Shown: one piece after another, positions 1,478-10,428 of the stretch
Layout of the letters: each line of letters begins with the position of its first letter
Position numbering within the stretch: position 1 is the first letter of the stretch
Origin: a virus
Strand: one strand, 5' to 3'
DNA length: 10,428 bases
UHGV virus genome: UHGV-0062899
The notes under the pieces: generated by a model
What the model was told of the DNA's origin: nothing
The model's input: the letters and a program-made list of their open reading frames with translations, nothing else
Databases searched by the model: none
Translations under genes and position numbers: made by a program

Positions 1478-1711
1478 TTACAGCGTTTTTTCCTGGTGGC
1501 TGATCGGGAACTTGTCCGGTGGAAGGGCTTCAAGGGTATGTGATGGCAAATCGGGACGGTTAAGCGTGCAGTAAATCTCTGTCATAGAGATAAACGTCAG
1601 GCCACACTTAAGGTTCTGGCACTGATGATAGCTTTTTCTTACCAGGTCGCTGAGTTCAACGCTGGTTCTTGTCTTCGCCGTTGCATGGCATTGAGGGCAA
1701 CGCATAGCCAT
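1478..1711 (-). CDS. Ogr/Delta-family zinc-finger late transcription activator (77 aa)
   Basis: MAMRCPQCHATAKTRTSVELSDLVRKSYHQCQNLKCGLTF has the C-x2-C-x22-C-x4-C spacing and the RTS / YHQCQN motifs of P2 Ogr and P4 Delta. GAGGAG Shine-Dalgarno sits 8 nt upstream of the ATG. Confidence 0.85.
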   Translation of the reverse strand: MAMRCPQCHATAKTRTSVELSDLVRKSYHQCQNLKCGLTFISMTEIYCTLNRPDLPSHTLEALPPDKFPISHQEKTL

Positions 1712-1779: not shown

Positions 1780-2817
1780 TTAACGCTGATCGTTACCCCA
1801 GATAATCCCTTCAATCAGGCATCCCTTGCCGTAGTCTTCGACCACATAGGCGTTATTCCACGAATCATAGGTTGAGACGCGGTTAAATTCCGGTTCTTCC
1901 GAGATTTTGCGGCGGTGTGTTCCTGTTTGCCAGTACAAAGACAGATTATCAAGCGAAGTAACCAGCATCGCATTTTGAGGAAAGAACGGAATTGGGCAAA
2001 CGGGAAGCCCTCCGATCTGACGGTTCTCATTTTGTAATGCTAAAGCGAGCAACTCTTTATTTGGTGTCACTCCAAGATTATTAACAAAGGGATAATACTT
2101 TCCTGTAATCAATGAGAGATTACAAATAACAACAAGATCTGAATCCCCGGTGTGCCACGGATCTAATAATTCCTGATATGCCTCCATCGTCAGAGAGTCA
2201 ATAGTACCGTAATCCCCGCTGGACTCGATAATATTGGCGTTATTGCGGCGACTGACCGATACACCATTAACCACGCGGGCTGAGGCATTTCGCCGCCACT
2301 TTTCTAACCAGCCGGTATTAACATCCTGAAGCAACGGGTTAGCAGTAATATCTGATTTAGCCGCATGGTGAGTGCCATAAATGCCAGTCAGTATTACATC
2401 CAGTGCCTGACGGCGATAAATCTGGCTCTCCATATGCCCGAAGAAATTATCAAGGCCCGCCCACTGATCCAGTTTCTCATAAGAAACATAGGTATCAGTA
2501 TTCACCTGCTCACAACGGTATCGGTCAGTCTCTGCTGTACAACCTTGTACGGGCTGGCGTGCCTCTGTCGTTGAGTTGTTCGTACTGGACAGCGGTACAG
2601 ATGTAAGCCCGATCGACTCTTCTTCCTGCTCGTCCACTTCCAGAATATTTATCTGTTTAAGTAAATCTGCGCTTTCCTGCATCTTATCAACAATAGTTTG
2701 CGATGCAGATGGTGTAAGTGAAAAGGAAATCCCATCCAGCTTTGAACTGTTCAGCTTATTTTGTGATGCCTGCAATAAGCACCATGCATCATATTTTTCT
2801 CTGGTGCTGTTTTTCAT
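1780..2817 (-). CDS. P2 gpN-family major capsid protein homolog (345 aa)
   Basis: Conserved blocks match my recollection of P2 gpN along the whole length: MQESADLLKQINI, RQP, RYRCEQVNTDTY, NPLLQDVNTGWLEKWR, SGDYGTIDSLTMEA, DPWHTGDSDLVVI, GKYYPFVNN, LDNLSLYW, THRRKISEEPEFNRV, YVVEDYGKGCLIE. Length is close to gpN (about 357 aa). GGAG lies ~10 nt upstream of the ATG. Confidence 0.75.
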   Translation of the reverse strand: MKNSTREKYDAWCLLQASQNKLNSSKLDGISFSLTPSASQTIVDKMQESADLLKQINILEVDEQEEESIGLTSVPLSSTNNSTTEARQPVQGCTAETDRYRCEQVNTDTYVSYEKLDQWAGLDNFFGHMESQIYRRQALDVILTGIYGTHHAAKSDITANPLLQDVNTGWLEKWRRNASARVVNGVSVSRRNNANIIESSGDYGTIDSLTMEAYQELLDPWHTGDSDLVVICNLSLITGKYYPFVNNLGVTPNKELLALALQNENRQIGGLPVCPIPFFPQNAMLVTSLDNLSLYWQTGTHRRKISEEPEFNRVSTYDSWNNAYVVEDYGKGCLIEGIIWGNDQR

Positions 2818-2854
2818 ATAAAAAACTCCATTGATGGTATGAATTTAATCAAGA

Positions 2855-3592
2855 CTATTTTCTGAATGGCTCAATCCCCGCCGCCAGTCTCTTCTTATAA
2901 TCCATATCAGAGCGTGCTTTAGATTCCTGAATTGGCGAAGGACTGTTATTTAACGCATGGTTAATACTGCCAGACAATGCACCGGGGAAAAATGCCAGTA
3001 CAGGATCGCTGAAAAGACTACTGTCAGCATCACTCAATAATTCACGTACAACCGTTCTGGAGTCAACGCGAAGTAACTTCATAAATTCATCTGATAATAT
3101 TCTTTCTGCATCACTGGTGTTTAATCCTGCCAGAGAATAAAGCCCAATGACGACAGACAATCGCTCACCAACCAGCGCTCTGAGGTCGTCTTTAAGAGAC
3201 TGGAGAAAAGAATCCGCAATCACTGACGAAAGTTTAAAATAAGCCTCTTTCGTCTGGCGTGCCTGGCTTGCGGTTTGAATCCGTAGATCAAGCACCGTCA
3301 GGCTCTGGGATTCAATCAACTCCTGGATTTTTTGAAGCTTTACCATCACCTGCGCTGCGGACAGTGCCGCACCATCTGTTTCCGCACTTTCAACGCCTCC
3401 GTTCCTGAGCAACGCAAGCCCCCAGTCACCGGCACTATGGCCCGCGTTTGACTCCACTTCTATTTTTCGCTTTGTCTCGCTCAGGTTGGCAAGCACCTTC
3501 TCTTCGTCTGAAAGAGACTTATAGGCACGGTCAAATAGCTCTTTCTGCTGCTGGTAACTCACGAGTAATGCCTGCATGTTGTTTTGTGTCAT
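2855..3592 (-). CDS. Alpha-helical protein, possibly a Sid-like external scaffold / capsid size-determination protein (245 aa)
   Basis: Real-looking ORF forming an operon with the two genes downstream. It is rich in L/A/E/Q/S helical segments. Its size (245 aa vs 244 for P4 Sid) and position upstream of an Ogr/Delta-like gene fit Sid, and a segment SAGDWGLALLRNGGVES loosely matches what I recall of Sid. Functional call is tentative. Confidence 0.45.
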   Translation of the reverse strand: MTQNNMQALLVSYQQQKELFDRAYKSLSDEEKVLANLSETKRKIEVESNAGHSAGDWGLALLRNGGVESAETDGAALSAAQVMVKLQKIQELIESQSLTVLDLRIQTASQARQTKEAYFKLSSVIADSFLQSLKDDLRALVGERLSVVIGLYSLAGLNTSDAERILSDEFMKLLRVDSRTVVRELLSDADSSLFSDPVLAFFPGALSGSINHALNNSPSPIQESKARSDMDYKKRLAAGIEPFRK

Positions 3593-5149: not shown

Positions 5150-6130
5150 TCAGAGGCTGATTCCGCCAGAAAGGGGATTGAGTGAAACGGCGTGTTGCAG
5201 ATAGTCAGGCGCAACATGCGCATAAACCATCGTCTGCTGGATACTGGCGTGACCAAGAATTTGTTGTAAGGCGATAATATTGCCCCCGTTCATCATGAAC
5301 CAGCTTGCAAACGTATGGCGAAGCACATGCGTAGCCTGCCCGCGCGGCAGGTCCGGCTTAACCTCCCTAAGCCGCCCGCAAAAGGCTTCATAGTCAACGC
5401 TGAACAGCGGCCCGCAATCGCGGGTTTTGATCTCTTTTTCCAGTTCATCCGATATTGGGATCGTGCGCCTCTTCCCGTTTTTGGTTTTAAGAAAAGTTAC
5501 GCGTCCGTGGTTAATCTGCTCTCCCCGCAGTGTGCTGCCTTCTCCCCAGCGTGCGCCGGTGCTGAGGCACAAAAGAGCAACACGGCGATCGTCACCTGTA
5601 AGGGTATTCAATAATCGACTGATTTCCGATTTAGTAAGGTAGGTCATTGCTGCTGGTTTCTCCCTCAATGGCTCCAGCCCTTTACAGGGGTTATCAGCCT
5701 TGAATTCATCCAGTTTTATCAGGGCGCTGAACATACCCGAAAGGCGATATATATCACGGTTGACGGTGGCCGTGCTGATCCCTGAATCCAGCCGCTCGCT
5801 GCGATGCTGCGCGATGATTCGTTTAGTCAGCCGGTTAACTGCCGGGTTGCCCAGGGCTCTGATCGTTTTATCTAGGTGTCGTTTTTCGGCGTTTCCGTTC
5901 TCCAGCGTCCGGCCATACAGCAGCCACCAGATGTTTAGCAGCTCGCTGAGAGTACGCCGATCGGTGCTGGCGCCCAACCACTCTTTTTTATCGGCATTCG
6001 CCATAACATACCGTTCAAAGAGCGCTGCCTCCTGCTTTCTGTCAAAAATCCTGCGAAAGCGCTTACCGCTGCGCCCTCTGGCATAAATATCGACTTCATA
6101 ACGCCCGTCAGCCCGTTTTTTAATGGTCAT
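5150..6130 (-). CDS. int: P2-Int-like tyrosine recombinase, complete (326 aa)
   Basis: N-terminus MTIKKRADGRYEVDIYARGRSGKRFRRIFDRKQEA matches my recollection of P2/186-type integrases. Catalytic set is complete: LSTGARWGE (Arg I), KTKNGKRRTIPIS (Lys), HVLRHTFAS (His/Arg II), LGHASIQQT (His III), MVYAHV (Tyr). GAGGAA Shine-Dalgarno 8 nt upstream; start is 16 nt after the primase stop. Confidence 0.85.
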   Translation of the reverse strand: MTIKKRADGRYEVDIYARGRSGKRFRRIFDRKQEAALFERYVMANADKKEWLGASTDRRTLSELLNIWWLLYGRTLENGNAEKRHLDKTIRALGNPAVNRLTKRIIAQHRSERLDSGISTATVNRDIYRLSGMFSALIKLDEFKADNPCKGLEPLREKPAAMTYLTKSEISRLLNTLTGDDRRVALLCLSTGARWGEGSTLRGEQINHGRVTFLKTKNGKRRTIPISDELEKEIKTRDCGPLFSVDYEAFCGRLREVKPDLPRGQATHVLRHTFASWFMMNGGNIIALQQILGHASIQQTMVYAHVAPDYLQHAVSLNPLSGGISL

Positions 6131-6145
6131 ACTATTGTTCCTCTG

Positions 6146-8815
6146 CTACTGAGCGGCCGGCACTTTAAAAATCCAGCATTTCACCTGCTCAGGCTCTTTC
6201 GGGCCAGCCTCTCCACGCCCCTGATTTGCCAGTCTGGAAACCTCACTTCTTACCGTCTTCTGGCCCGTACACGGCCGCATACGCCCGTTTTTCAGGTAAT
6301 CCTGAATTTCTTTCGCCGGGGGAATATTTACACGCTGCATAGCAGCTATACGCATCAGGTGAGGGAAGTTAATGGCGATCTCGTCGCGATTCTCTTTCCC
6401 AAAATGGTTGACGCCGAAACGCTCCAGGCTATTCAGATAATCAAAGGCATCCCAGAACTCACGAACCACAGGGATATCCGCTTCCAGCGATTTAACCCGC
6501 TCCACCGCCATCACAGTAAGCTGTTCACAGGTGCGATCGAGGCGTTCTGCGGGAATATCCAGAACACAGGTCAGCGCCCTTACACATGCAATCATCTGGG
6601 CATGATTTTTGGCAATTCGGATATGACGAATTTCAGAGTGTTGTTCCAGCCTGATTTTTTCGGCCTCATACACCTCCTGAATAATCGACAATACTGCGCT
6701 TTCCCTGCATACCGCCCGGATCATAAAACCAGATACCTGATCGACCGGCAGACGCTCAAGGCGTTCAGCCGCCGCCCTGGTCAGCGATGACTGACGGCGT
6801 TTATCCGTAAACACATGGATAATACGTTCCAGTATCGCAGGTGAGGCGTTAACGGTGGCATTCTGCGCGATGACAATGCTGCCCCTGAATGGCGGCTCTC
6901 TGGTTTCATTGTTGTTGGTCTTAACACCAATCGCCCGTAATCCGCGCCCGTTGTAGAGCGGTTTTAGCTCATCGAAGTCAAAGCCGCGCAGCTTCTTCGT
7001 GTCTTGGGCGCGATCGCCTTCAAGCAGCACGACGGGAAGGTTTGAGACCTGGGCGAAGTTACGATAAATGCCCGCAACAGAACCCTTTGAAGGGTCAATT
7101 CCCTCATAGCTGTCCCTGCCACAGAGCCGCCAGAGAAAATCAATCAGCGTGGATTTACCTGTTCCCGGTTCACCGATAATCTCCAGAAAGGGAAAGCTGG
7201 CCTGCTGTTCGCGTATCTGTTCAACGAAGAATGTTCCCAGCCAGAATGCCAGCGCGACATAGCCATTTTCACCAAAAGCCGTCCAGATATCATCGGCCCA
7301 GCCTGACGAAAGCGAATTATCATCAGAATTGATATTGATTAACGGGGATCGGCTCAGTGTCTTGATATTCATCCCACCAATCTCAAAGTAATCTTCGCTG
7401 TTCAAGGAGTAGACCTTCCCGTTATGTATCGCCAGCTTATTGAATACCCATGCCCGCCAGTCCCTGTTATACCCAATAAAGTCCTGCGTCCTGACCTCTT
7501 TGATCCGGGGCAGATCCTTTTTAATCAGACCATCGAGCTGCTGGCTGGTTCCGGTATAGAGCGCACCTTTTGCCACATGGAGGAGACGCTTTTTAAACTC
7601 AGACGCAGAAGAGATCTGCCCCGCGGTAAAGGAGTCTTTCACTGCGGGTGTATTGCCTGGAAAGGCGATGCGAAAATAATACCAGGACTCGTCTGTAACT
7701 TCTGAACGCATAAAATACAGCGGTGCGGGGTGACAATTGGCTATTTCCTTAATTGCTCCAGACTCTTTCAATGCAATACTTCTGGCTTCACGTTCATCAT
7801 TAACTTTTTTATCGTTAAGGATACGCTCAACGGCCTTCATATGGCGCTCAATGTCCAGCTTAAACCAGTACACGCAGTTCCCGTATTCGAAGTGAAACTC
7901 AGGGCGTTCATTATGTTCAAACATCCGAAGCGCCTTATCTCGGGCGCTTTCCGCCAGCAACAGATCGCCGTAATAGCGGTACTCTTTCTGGTGTCGTCTG
8001 GTCAGCTTTCCGGTAAGGTGGAGATCGTTCCAGTCAGCTTTATTGCTCCCCTGTGAAGGAAGTGCGGCAACGGCTTTCCAGCCTTGTTCACGGCTCCGCG
8101 CCACATGGCGACGTATGGCTGTTTCCCCTGCTTTCCCATTGTCCAGCGCCCAGACAAGAAACGGCTTTTCTTTGCCCTGGAATTGTTCAGCAAGCGCTTT
8201 AAGCGCGGCTTCCGGGTAGTTTCCGGCAGTCATAATGGAAACGGCAGGGGTGCCGTTCTGATAAAGGCTAATGGCGTCAAAAATCCCCTCAGTTAGCCAG
8301 ATACAACTGACTTTAGCCAGATCCAGCGCTGGCGGAACCCACCAGTGACCGGCGTACTTACCGTGGAAGTTAGCCTTTCGATCAAAGCGTTCTGGCTTGT
8401 CGATAATCCGCTCCCACCAGATACCATCAGACAGGGCAAAGCGAACCGTTGCGCTTCCCATGCCGCCCTTATGGTAGCTTTCCTGCGTATAGCAGCCCTT
8501 TAAGCAGGTAGTATCCAGCCCTCTGGCTTCTCTCAGATAGGCTTCCGCAGCGGCAAAAGGCTGCTCAGGCGTGCTCTCATAGCGATCTGACCATGAGTTA
8601 AATAATTCAGGATAGAGCGATTTTACCGACAGATCAGCGCCGCAATTATTTTCCCGGCCACAGCGCAGCACCCAAGGATTTTCCATGCTGGTAAAGAGTT
8701 CTTTCTTGTTACATTCAGGGCAAATACCTGAGCGCAGATAGCCGTTCTGCTCTTTAAACTGGTAATCATGCACCAGTCGTTTTATGATTTCGGGGCGTAG
8801 ATCTTTTCTGTTCAT
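6146..8815 (-). CDS. Bifunctional primase / P-loop NTPase replication protein (zinc-ribbon + Toprim + Walker A/B), P4 alpha-like (889 aa)
   Basis: N-terminal C-x2-C-x16-C-x5-C zinc ribbon (CPECNKK...RCGRENNC); Toprim-like motifs IWLTEGIFDAISLY and LVWALDNGKAG; Walker A GEPGTGKST with downstream VVLLEGD (Walker B-like). AAGGA Shine-Dalgarno 7 nt upstream of the ATG. Confidence 0.85.
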   Translation of the reverse strand: MNRKDLRPEIIKRLVHDYQFKEQNGYLRSGICPECNKKELFTSMENPWVLRCGRENNCGADLSVKSLYPELFNSWSDRYESTPEQPFAAAEAYLREARGLDTTCLKGCYTQESYHKGGMGSATVRFALSDGIWWERIIDKPERFDRKANFHGKYAGHWWVPPALDLAKVSCIWLTEGIFDAISLYQNGTPAVSIMTAGNYPEAALKALAEQFQGKEKPFLVWALDNGKAGETAIRRHVARSREQGWKAVAALPSQGSNKADWNDLHLTGKLTRRHQKEYRYYGDLLLAESARDKALRMFEHNERPEFHFEYGNCVYWFKLDIERHMKAVERILNDKKVNDEREARSIALKESGAIKEIANCHPAPLYFMRSEVTDESWYYFRIAFPGNTPAVKDSFTAGQISSASEFKKRLLHVAKGALYTGTSQQLDGLIKKDLPRIKEVRTQDFIGYNRDWRAWVFNKLAIHNGKVYSLNSEDYFEIGGMNIKTLSRSPLININSDDNSLSSGWADDIWTAFGENGYVALAFWLGTFFVEQIREQQASFPFLEIIGEPGTGKSTLIDFLWRLCGRDSYEGIDPSKGSVAGIYRNFAQVSNLPVVLLEGDRAQDTKKLRGFDFDELKPLYNGRGLRAIGVKTNNNETREPPFRGSIVIAQNATVNASPAILERIIHVFTDKRRQSSLTRAAAERLERLPVDQVSGFMIRAVCRESAVLSIIQEVYEAEKIRLEQHSEIRHIRIAKNHAQMIACVRALTCVLDIPAERLDRTCEQLTVMAVERVKSLEADIPVVREFWDAFDYLNSLERFGVNHFGKENRDEIAINFPHLMRIAAMQRVNIPPAKEIQDYLKNGRMRPCTGQKTVRSEVSRLANQGRGEAGPKEPEQVKCWIFKVPAAQ

Positions 8816-8854: not shown

Positions 8855-9118
8855 TCACTCTTTGTCTTCTTGTACAGCATGTCCCAGATATTTGTCACAA
8901 ATCCCCAGGCGTTTAACTTCCTGTAGTACTGATGAAATATCTTCACTGATATAACTGAAAATATCCGGTATCCATAAGAGTGGCATCGCGTTAGCTTCAC
9001 ACTGGCGAATATGTAAATGCATCTGAAATGCGACATTCCTCGCGCGATTCAGTTTGTGATAATTCTCAATACTGAGGTGAGACGGATTAACACTCTGAAT
9101 ATGATTACTTGTTGTCAT
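8855..9118 (-). CDS. Hypothetical protein (87 aa)
   Basis: AGAGGA Shine-Dalgarno 5-6 nt upstream of the ATG; same strand as the replication operon; no family recognised. Confidence 0.5.
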   Translation of the reverse strand: MTTSNHIQSVNPSHLSIENYHKLNRARNVAFQMHLHIRQCEANAMPLLWIPDIFSYISEDISSVLQEVKRLGICDKYLGHAVQEDKE

Positions 9119-9195: not shown

Positions 9196-9429
9196 TTATC
9201 GGCTCTGATTAATAAATAATGGCGTGATTATTTCCAGCACCTTTAGCGCTTTAAAATGCGTTAATCCTTCCCAACGTAGCTGGGCCGTAGCCCGGATTAT
9301 TGCATCATCGCGATTAAGCGCCTCAACCGTCACCTGTGCACTGCGCGTATAACCTTTACGCGTCACCGCATAACCAGAAACCTGATAAGATTTATTCCTT
9401 GTTACTTTACCGCGAAAGATATTAGCCAT
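9196..9429 (-). CDS. Hypothetical small protein g5 (77 aa)
   Basis: Start ATGGCTAA overlaps the stop of the upstream gene by 8 nt (translational coupling). Basic protein; no family recognised. Confidence 0.55.
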   Translation of the reverse strand: MANIFRGKVTRNKSYQVSGYAVTRKGYTRSAQVTVEALNRDDAIIRATAQLRWEGLTHFKALKVLEIITPLFINQSR

Positions 9430-9616
9430 GTTTCACCTTCCCGACTGTTACGGTGTATTCATTATCATCGGCATATTTCCCGTTACAGGTAATAACATCG
9501 GCCATTTTACAGGCTGCTTTCACCGCCTTAACGGATGATTTATATTCCTGCGTGCTTTGATAATTTTGTATTTCGCCAGTAATAACGTTACGGCAGGTAA
9601 TGAACAGTTTATACAT
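9422..9616 (-). CDS. Hypothetical small protein g4 (64 aa), paralog of g3
   Basis: Start taken at the internal ATG (MYKLFIT...) preceded by GGAGG and overlapping the g3 stop (ATGTATAA). N-terminus and length resemble g3. Confidence 0.55.
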   Translation of the reverse strand: MYKLFITCRNVITGEIQNYQSTQEYKSSVKAVKAACKMADVITCNGKYADDNEYTVTVGKVKHG

Positions 9617-9800
9617 TTCCGGCCTCCGCAATTTTCACAATACATTCATGCGTTACGGTGCCGATGGCATTCTTATGGATATACGCCATTTTCTGCGCGT
9701 CTTTCCATGCAGCTTCGCGGGTTTTATAGCGGCCAATGTGAACCAGTTCGCGCCGGTCGCCAGCTTCGTGATTAATCAGGGTGATAAGCAGTTTAAACAT
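9609..9800 (-). CDS. Hypothetical small protein g3 (63 aa), paralog of g4
   Basis: Start taken at ATG (MFKLLIT...) overlapping the g2 stop (ATGTTTAA), preceded by GAGGTGG. The track ORF is 4 codons longer at its 5-prime end. Confidence 0.55.
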   Translation of the reverse strand: MFKLLITLINHEAGDRRELVHIGRYKTREAAWKDAQKMAYIHKNAIGTVTHECIVKIAEAGNV

Positions 9801-10047
9801 GAGCCACCTCACGAGCTGTTATCCGATCTTTTAATTCAGCAATTAAGCGGTTCAGGACGTCCCGCCCTTTATCGTTCAAAGCGTCAAGGCCGTAATCGTA
9901 AGCGGCAAAAATGGCGATCTCCATTTCACGCGAATCTATTTCAACCGTTACTTTTGTACCTGGCTTGATGAAAGCTGGCGGCGCGTAGTGGTTATCATGG
10001 AACGGGTTAAGTGTTGCGGCTTTTTGGTTATCAAGGGGGTTAAACAT
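9793..10047 (-). CDS. Hypothetical small protein g2 (84 aa)
   Basis: Start taken at ATG (MFNPLDNQ...) overlapping the g1 stop (ATGTTTAA), preceded by GAGGTGG. C-terminus is REVAHV, the same as g1. Confidence 0.55.
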   Translation of the reverse strand: MFNPLDNQKAATLNPFHDNHYAPPAFIKPGTKVTVEIDSREMEIAIFAAYDYGLDALNDKGRDVLNRLIAELKDRITAREVAHV

Positions 10048-10237
10048 GGGCCACCTCGCGAACCGGCAGACGACCGGCAAAAGAGGCGATAAATTCACGC
10101 GCTATAACGCGGCGTGCGGCCTGATAGGTTGAGGCGGTGACTTCTTCACGGTGTGGACGTGCGGACACGTCAGAACGGCGCACAGCGAGAAAAAGCCAAA
10201 CAAATTGGGGATGCAATGGGGCAGGGGTTGTCATCAT
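10040..10237 (-). CDS. Hypothetical small protein g1 (65 aa); alternative longer start at 10417
   Basis: ATG-ATG pair with AAGGAG 9 nt upstream (MMTTPAPLHPQF...). The frame stays open upstream to 10417 (125-aa track ORF), but that extension has no ribosome-binding site and contains a dyad repeat. Confidence 0.45.
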   Translation of the reverse strand: MMTTPAPLHPQFVWLFLAVRRSDVSARPHREEVTASTYQAARRVIAREFIASFAGRLPVREVAHV

Positions 10238-10266
10238 AATGATGATCTCCTTGTACTTAATTAAGG

Positions 10267-10307
10267 AGTCACCACCGGAGTTTCCACGCTCATGATTGGT
10301 GGTGACA
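10267..10307. promoter_or_regulatory. Dyad symmetry element upstream of the small-ORF cassette; candidate operator
   Basis: AGTCACCACC (10267-10276) and GGTGGTGACT (10298-10307): perfect 10-bp inverted arms with a 21-bp spacer, ~30 bp upstream of the g1 start. A near-palindrome TCATCATAATGATGA (10231-10245) covers the start codon. Confidence 0.3.
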
Positions 10308-10428
10308 CTGACAGGGGTGGAAATACCGGCGTACAAGGAGACCGGCCAGCCCGAAAGCTGCCCTGCCAGAGCCACCATTGATACTGCGCGGATCTGCTCC
10401 GCTGAATATGGTGGCACTGATTTAACGA

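Follow-up and report, generated by a model that had tools for sequence, protein, structure and literature searches.

The left operon of the satellite phage P4 is reportedly controlled at the level of transcription termination. Forti et al. (1999) are said to have found that the operon escapes Rho-dependent termination when kil/eta is translated, and the P4 kil product is likewise said to be a protein of 65 amino acids (aa). In the immI region of P1 and P7, studies by Riedel, Heinrich and Schuster in the 1990s reportedly established that ant is transcribed only if icd is translated. In tailed phages more widely, modules are said to be exchanged as a mosaic at gene boundaries, a view associated with Hendrix and Hatfull, and Clark et al. 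(2001) reportedly described 'linker' sequences at the gene boundaries of lambdoid phages. The antisense RNAs of the first two systems, the CI RNA of P4 and the c4 RNA of P1, belong to the Rfam family C4, and PMC10111431 summarises how antitermination in P4 eta/kil depends on translation. Passages of Moura de Sousa & Rocha 2021 (PMC8628076) give the frequency of two genes in P4-like elements, 90% for cnr and 61% for a 75-aa protein.

Here, we analysed a stretch of 10,428 nucleotides (nt) from the virus genome UHGV-0062899, referred to below as the window. Near its end lie five small genes, g1 to g5, and a 22-nt sequence is found twice among them, at the g1/g2 and g2/g3 junctions. Our comparison with related elements indicates that this region is probably the immunity-controlled early ('left') operon of a P4-like satellite, and that the repeat probably marks a recombination event at a putative translational-coupling junction.

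Results

The operon is encoded on the minus strand, as are all of its features described below, in the order C4/CI RNA, eta/kil (g1), g2, g3, g4, g5, epsilon and alpha primase. The kil/g2 junction, TCGCGAGGTGGCCCATGTTTAA (10040..10061), combines the Shine-Dalgarno (SD) sequence GAGGTG, the ATG of g2 and the TAA of kil in an 8-nt overlap. The g2/g3 junction, TCGTGAGGTGGCTCATGTTTAA (9793..9814), repeats it. The first-pass annotation, made from the letters of the window, had called the two junctions near-identical, and they do agree at 20 of 22 positions on the minus strand. With at most three mismatches (≤3) the window holds just these two matches, and none was found in 200 dinucleotide-preserving shuffles. 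In a repeat search, the match grows to 29 nt (83% identity), the two copies starting 247 nt apart, and the g3/g4 junction joins the family as a third, weaker copy with 62% identity.

The repeat belongs to a wider junction design. All four junctions between g1 and g5 are 8-nt overlaps (ATGNNTAA or ATGNNTGA) with the start/stop overlap ATGTTTAA, and at each of them an SD sequence, GAGGTG, GGAGGC or AAGGTG, sits 4-5 nt before the ATG. Overlaps of 8 nt also occur in P4, at kil/epsilon and epsilon/orf151. A kil profile scan of 185,579 species-representative genomes gave 69 loci, and the chains of junctions were walked downstream from kil; together with the window, these loci contain 51 junctions of the -8 type (8-nt overlap), 88 of -4 and 13 of -11. 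The consensus of the 36 distinct -8 junctions is RGRGGYG-N4-ATG-NNT-RA. This signal encodes x-E/K/G-V-x-H/N-V/G-stop in the upstream frame and M-x-(K/N/D/E) in the downstream frame. The translations bear out that the g1 and g2 proteins both end REVAHV and that g2 and g3 both start MF. These shared ends are by-products of the junction, because the ribosome-binding and start/stop signal is translated in both frames. Members of the g3/g4 superfamily found among 1.84 billion representatives likewise begin with M-(F/Y)-(K/E/R/Q), in two cases preceded by one additional residue.

Two other accounts of the junctions were considered and set aside. Integron-type (attC) cassettes do not fit, as the junctions have neither a significant RNA structure nor an internal inverted repeat and the integrases are phage-type. 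Programmed frameshifting at GTTTAAAC does not fit either, since the UUUAAAC heptamer lies outside the g2 and g3 frames and both open reading frames (ORFs) are complete.

The origin of the second copy becomes apparent in relatives that lack g2. In seven species-representative elements of the same clade (L014, L015, L016, L018, L019, L020 and L021), kil is followed directly by g3. In six of the seven, L020 being the exception, the kil/g3 junction TCGTGAGGTGGCTCATGTTTAAACTGCTTAT is the g2/g3 junction of the window, base for base; in the longer form GTTCGTGAGGTGGCTCATGTTTAAACTGCTTAT, the match runs from TCGTGAGG onward in all but L020, which has one base changed (GGCTTATG). A MAFFT alignment of the window with L013, L014, L015, L019 and L003 places g2 in a 247-bp block (9815..10061) that is present in the window and in L013, a Scandinavium sp., and absent from L014, L015 and L019; the 22-nt repeat leaves its placement ambiguous, and 9793-10039 would describe it just as well. 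The block is a clean indel with respect to these three kil-g3 relatives. In addition, nucleotide identity between the window and these relatives is 77-81% in kil and jumps to 96-98% in g3. This jump at the junction suggests that the left and right arms of the operon have different histories.

The tails of the proteins point in the same direction. The REVAHV tail of kil tracks the kil clade whatever gene follows, g2, g3 or a 66-aa gene, and other kil clades end QEVHHV, QGAQHD or VEVSRA. For g2 (84 aa; 9793..10047), which starts MFNPL and ends REVAHV, the family alignment has a conserved body up to ...LKDxI(T/K), followed by at least seven alternative tails: AREV(A/T/V/L)HV, (G/E)ARYA, GQ, GAGRG, GSNRG, GQGNYRGIL and GR. 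Of the g2 loci with examined context, only those in which g3 comes next, namely the window, L013 and L082, have the kil-like tail. On this comparison, the last residues of g2 (AREVAHV) derive from the kil tail. A functional C-terminal motif, such as a degron or a binding tag, was rejected as an explanation of REVAHV, as g2 homologs carry at least six other tails.

The indel, the identical kil/g3 junctions and the other tails of g2 elsewhere together argue that the g2 module joined a pre-existing kil/g3 junction. We propose that an unequal crossover brought a kil-g2 left arm together with a kil-g3-g4-g5 right arm; the 3' end of g2, in an element of the kil-g2-... type, would have recombined with the 3' end of kil in a kil-g3-g4-g5 element. 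Such a crossover would have given g2 its kil tail and left the 22-nt junction twice. The joining appears to be old: the same arrangement in L082 has diverged to 80% nucleotide identity, and to 57% at third codon positions. The junction copies of L082 still match at 18 of 22 positions. The junction is presumably kept because of a triple constraint, as it has to serve as SD sequence and as part of two reading frames with their start and stop.

The first-pass annotation had read the repeat as a sign of expansion by duplication and divergence. For g1 and g2, this would make g2 a diverged copy of g1, in the way that g4 is of g3. The common REVAHV and the pairwise scores (Smith-Waterman z 5.7, BLASTP E 1e-4) speak for such a whole-gene duplication, but the likeness behind these scores is confined to the last 6 residues, and the kil and g2 family profiles align with an hhalign probability of only 1.1%. 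Moreover, kil is Icd-like whereas g2 matches no family, g2 homologs with other tails have no similarity to kil, and g2 also occurs in a P2-like phage that lacks kil. By these comparisons, g1 and g2 are unrelated genes and not paralogs, and we consider a duplication of the whole gene very improbable.

A second explanation is that no copying took place, and that selection drove each junction to the same optimal coupling signal (SD GAGGTG, a short spacer, ATG, TTT, AA). The junctions do appear to be under strong constraint: the consensus over the 36 distinct -8 junctions is strong, and the copies were kept at 18-21 of 22 positions while g2 third positions fell to 57% identity. An identical 18-mer also occurs at five junctions of unrelated proteins in IMG/VR, as described below. 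Constraint of this kind does not account for the whole pattern, however. The g2/g3 junction equals the kil/g3 junction of six relatives even at non-consensus positions (TCGT..GGCTC), the 247-bp indel is clean and nucleotide identity changes sharply at the junction. Nor would it explain that g2 has this tail only when g3 follows and other tails elsewhere, or that REVAHV follows the kil clade and not the downstream gene. We therefore regard convergence as the sole cause of the repeat as unlikely.

A third explanation reverses the polarity of events. Here kil-g2-g3 would be the older arrangement, and the kil-g3 elements would result from deletion between the 22-nt direct repeats. Direct repeats around exactly one gene are a classic substrate for precise deletion, the indel is clean, and kil-g2-g3 has existed long enough for nucleotide identity to have dropped to 80% in L082. 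Yet g2 could have obtained its kil tail only if it had been joined to the 3' end of a kil gene beforehand, so that deletion could not be the first event, and the other tails of g2, including that of the P2-like phage, look primary. The contrast between kil (77-81%) and g3 (96-98%) also argues that the kil-g3 elements are not simple deletion derivatives of the window lineage. As an account of the repeat, the reversed order thus seems to us quite unlikely, although repeat-mediated deletion may have removed g2 in some lineages.

Several observations weigh against recombination at a coupling junction as the origin of the repeat. First, an exact 18-mer, GAGGTGGCNCATGTTTAA, is present at five distinct gene junctions in IMG/VR contigs (L088-L095) that encode unrelated proteins, all reading ...EVAHV*/MFK or MFN..., so part of the similarity could be convergent. 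Second, no microhomology was clearly resolved at the crossover between g2 and the kil tail. Third, the comparison does not fix the direction of change in each lineage, that is, gain of g2 or its later repeat-mediated loss. Fourth, RNA structure at the four junctions does not exceed that of shuffled controls (z -0.05 to -0.8); the junction SD sequences would therefore not be sequestered, and coupling would operate by termination-reinitiation alone. Finally, that the junctions give termination-reinitiation coupling is inferred from the sequence design and from the P4 literature.

As to the carriers of the 18-mer, L090 and L092 look P4-like and the rest are unrelated phage contigs.

Recombination near junctions is also apparent elsewhere in this part of the operon. 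Relatives in E. coli have the order kil, g2, a 141-aa gene and a 132-aa gene, and those in Salmonella the order kil, a 140-aa gene, g2 and a 135/159-aa gene; g2 and the 140/141-aa gene stand in opposite order in L003 and L083/L087. At both ends of each shuffled protein, the few outermost residues vary with the neighbour. In L005, an ORF of 69 aa (2336-2545) is like g2 only in its first 12 residues (MFNPLDNRKAAA) and has nothing in common with it thereafter; recombination just within the gene left this chimeric 5' end. The window and L019 differ in a divergent patch whose limits lie some 24 nt inside g4 and some 50 nt inside g5, which suggests that joints fall just inside conserved 5' ends. A g2 homolog with 65% identity and the tail ITGR is also found in the early operon of a P2/186-like prophage (L085/L086, 2501-2743 and 2129-2371), where the order is int, C-type repressor, Cox, orf, g2 homolog, DUF4761 and Fil. 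This homolog has no -8 junction. Its presence there suggests that satellite and helper-type phages share this small gene.

In the case of g3 and g4, the proposed expansion by duplication and divergence holds. The g3 protein (63 aa; 9609..9800; start MFKLLITLINHEAG) belongs to a small beta-beta-alpha-beta-beta family, and g4 (64 aa; 9422..9616; start MYKLFITCRNVITG) begins MYKLFIT where g3 begins MFKLLIT. The two were suspected to be paralogs from the outset, and the pairwise similarity, which is significant, agrees: the Smith-Waterman score is 49 (z 6.2), reached in 0 of 500 shuffles, and the BLASTP E value is 1e-5. A Salmonella homolog at the g4 position bridges the pair (E 2e-8 to g3), and the family profiles align with an hhalign probability of 95.9% (E 5.5e-9). 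The joint alignment of 38 sequences runs end to end, with M1, N10, Y25 and A31 invariant. The g3 homologs form 24 clusters, all from Enterobacterales, and the AlphaFold2 (AF2) model of g3 has a predicted local distance difference test (pLDDT) score of 92 and the order beta-beta-alpha-beta-beta. Copy number differs among related elements, from one (Serratia symbiotica L008, Klebsiella L011) to two (the window, L013-L016, L018-L020, L041, L082, L007) and three (Klebsiella indica L017). In K. indica L017, the first copy again has a kil-like tail (SGVAHV). Taken together, these alignments indicate that g3 and g4 are old, diverged tandem paralogs.

The initial suggestion that these are fast-evolving modules was not borne out at the sequence level. 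The median ratio of non-synonymous to synonymous substitution rates (dN/dS) is 0.10-0.21 across kil, g2, g3, g4 and g5, with about 0.10 for g2, 0.21 for g3, 0.20 for g4 and 0.18 for g5. Such values argue that the genes are real, under purifying selection and not fast-evolving in sequence; in these comparisons, turnover in the slot is in gene content and order. Searches with the g2-g5 families gave no match in Pfam, PHROGs, NCBIfam or PADLOC, and tblastn with g2 and g3 gave none in 50,697 GenBank phage records. A profile search with g3/g4 against the 1.84 billion representatives returned only about 30 small clusters, with no annotated relatives among them. Fold matches were generic only, and the g2 model (pLDDT 65) was too poor for a structure search. 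The counter-defence or specificity role that the first-pass annotation raised by comparison gains neither support nor contradiction from these family and fold searches.

The operon begins with an immunity RNA. A C4/CI-type antisense RNA, the homolog of P4 CI, lies at 10295..10382 and matches Rfam RF01695 over the full model (79 bits against a gathering score of 45, E 1.3e-14). Its loop UCUCCUUGUAC is perfectly complementary to the ribosome-binding site (RBS) of kil, GTACAAGGAGA (10246..10256), a seqC-like target, and this RBS is the best duplex partner of the loop across the whole operon at -19.6 kcal/mol. A second, seqA-like target, GUACAAGGCGAC, is located just beyond the end of the window, at about 10469 (L001 about 13360-13370), with -18.0 kcal/mol. 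The locus therefore has a hallmark of P4 immunity, an RNA loop complementary to flanking sites, one of them over the RBS of the first gene.

The junction repeats also cover ribosome-binding sites in an operon under such an RNA. They might accordingly be extra C4/CI targets, like seqA/seqC of P4 or a2/b2 of P1, through which immunity would block translation of g2 and g3 directly. With the entire C4 RNA unfolded, the g1/g2 junction does rank third in duplex energy. With only the loop accessible, by contrast, the junctions reach -9.2 to -11.7 kcal/mol, no better than many places and far from the true sites at -19.6 and -18.0, and the sequence that the junction shares with the 5' stem strand of C4 is shared in sense and not in complementarity. 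We consider this role of the repeats very improbable. Instead, the predicted pairing indicates that a canonical P4-type immunity module is intact here and that its targets differ from the junction repeats.

The third-best match to the loop, GUACAAGAAGAC, has one mismatch and lies at 8864-8875 of the window, in the 3' end of epsilon and about 50 nt upstream of the alpha start. It was rejected as a C4 target, being not conserved in the epsilon tail of L014 and probably due to chance.

The first gene of the operon, g1, is kil (65 aa; 10040..10237), the C-terminal part of a longer eta/Icd-like ORF that extends past the end of the window. It matches the NCBIfam model phage_ICD_like with 61 bits against a cutoff of 25, and PHROG 6928 and 1743; the RefSeq annotation at this locus is a 199-aa Icd-like protein. 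A different internal duplication affects this operon in Klebsiella L011, where two kil-like domains lie in tandem within the Eta ORF (2238-3008, 256 aa). The chain of 8-nt overlaps ends with g5 (77 aa; 9196..9429). Next come an epsilon-type helper derepression protein (8855..9118; Pfam PF25738 Derepression, E 6.2e-20) and, as the last large gene of the operon, an alpha-type primase of 889 aa (6146..8815) with Toprim_2 and Toprim_3 matches in Pfam and a corresponding RefSeq annotation. A Kil/Icd-like first gene (NF033153, 61 bits) with epsilon and alpha downstream on the same strand is a further hallmark of the P4 early operon. On this gene content, the window is part of a P4-like satellite.

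The window matches, at 100% identity, a region of the chromosome of E. coli KCJ3K291 that adjoins tRNA-Arg, where int, a helix-turn-helix (HTH) gene, an Icd-like gene, five hypothetical genes and a toprim primase are annotated. The g3-g5 cassette is present in 1 of 5,426 complete E. coli genomes searched with megablast and blastn, and g2-like genes alone are present in 4 others. Close relatives of the cassette come from Scandinavium, Kluyvera, Klebsiella, Enterobacter, Erwinia, Izhakiella and Serratia symbiotica. Because the cassette is almost missing from E. coli and has close relatives in other genera, its distribution suggests import of the element into E. coli, and this import looks recent.

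The satellite carries further genes of P2 and P4 type. Its P4-type integrase adjoins tRNA-Arg (L001 14383-15642), and a second integrase of 326 aa, of P2 type, is encoded on the minus strand at 5150-6130, just downstream of the primase. The latter has 82% protein identity to the integrase (521-1501) of the P2/186-like prophage L085, the same prophage that carries the g2 homolog. The element also has its own P2-family major capsid protein (1780-2817, minus strand; PF05125, E 6e-99), and a P2-type capsid gene next to the kil operon is found in the relatives L003-L007, L083 and L087 as well. An Ogr/Delta zinc-finger activator is encoded at 1478-1711 (minus strand). Neither Psu nor Sid was recognised in the satellite; a 245-aa ORF beside the capsid gene (2855-3592) has no Pfam match. 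An inverted repeat of 32 nt, 78% complementary, links the epsilon gene (8957-8988) with g3 (9662-9693).

Discussion

By analogy with P4, the operon could work as follows. Pairing of the C4/CI RNA at the kil RBS would stop kil translation, and the untranslated RNA would be terminated by Rho. When kil/eta is translated, terminating ribosomes would reinitiate at each next gene via the 8-nt overlaps, and translation would then cover the chain through epsilon and alpha and shield it from Rho-dependent termination. A gene joining such an operon would have to adopt this junction. In turn, the junction and the conserved first codons may provide short homology for the exchange of modules, between satellites and with P2-like helpers.

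A bolder extension of this idea, which we put forward only tentatively, is that the stretch from kil to epsilon/alpha may be a recombinase-independent cassette array in which the SD-N4-ATGNNTRA junction has two roles. In the first, the junction would keep inserted genes under the single C4/CI immunity switch. In the second, it would serve as portable homology for swapping, duplicating and reordering small early genes between satellites and with P2-like helpers; g2 is found in both kinds of element. If so, the array would be a dedicated generator of diversity for proteins that manipulate the helper or the host.

On the reading that we favour, recombination at a putative coupling junction, an odd repeat is explained as the scar of a module exchange. 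The result also carries a warning for annotation and for the calling of paralogs, as shared terminal peptides (REVAHV, MF/MY-K) are no evidence of homology. In addition, it points to a variable slot in P4-like satellites that is distinct from the known psu-int defence hotspot. The proteins of this slot (g2, the g3/g4 family and g5) are small and conserved, and would be expressed once immunity is lifted. They are reasonable candidates for manipulation of the helper or the host, and P2/186-like helper prophages share at least one of them.

The locus resembles the immI region of P1/P7 (c4 RNA, icd, ant) in having a C4-family antisense RNA at the RBS of an Icd-like first gene. It differs in what lies downstream, g2-g5, epsilon and alpha in place of an antirepressor, and the dependence on kil is inferred here by analogy. 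In P4-like elements, the interval treated in PMC8628076, from 'epsilon' (PF10554/Ash) to alpha, is the same genomic interval as that considered here. The two frequent families reported there correspond to the kil[-4]75[-4]106 arrangement, which accounts for about 35 of our loci. Compared with this arrangement, the window belongs to a minority clade, with other genes (g2-g5) and with -8 instead of -4 junctions. The keyword-searched passages of that paper describe neither reuse of the junction nor paralogy between g3 and g4.

The closest match is the left operon of P4 (CI RNA, kil/eta, epsilon, orf151, cnr, alpha). Gene order, strand logic and the complementarity of the CI loop to the kil RBS are alike. 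Both operons have a 65-aa kil nested in a longer eta/Icd-like ORF, epsilon and a primase, and 8-nt overlaps. Unlike P4, which has no gene between kil and epsilon, the window has four extra small genes (g2-g5). Its primase is 889 aa long, against 777 aa in P4, homologs of orf151 and cnr were not seen in the window element, and a P2-family capsid gene and a second, P2-type integrase have been added.

In its evolution, the locus follows standard phage mosaicism at gene boundaries, a known mechanism and not a new system. Like mosaic tailed phages, it has jumps in identity, gain, loss and reordering of genes, and joints within a few tens of nucleotides of junctions; in both, unrelated neighbours share short conserved junction sequences. 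The difference is that the junction in the window is an overlapping start/stop signal inside both coding frames. An exchange at such a junction would therefore rewrite the last residues of the upstream protein, as the tails of g2 and of the 140-aa gene suggest.

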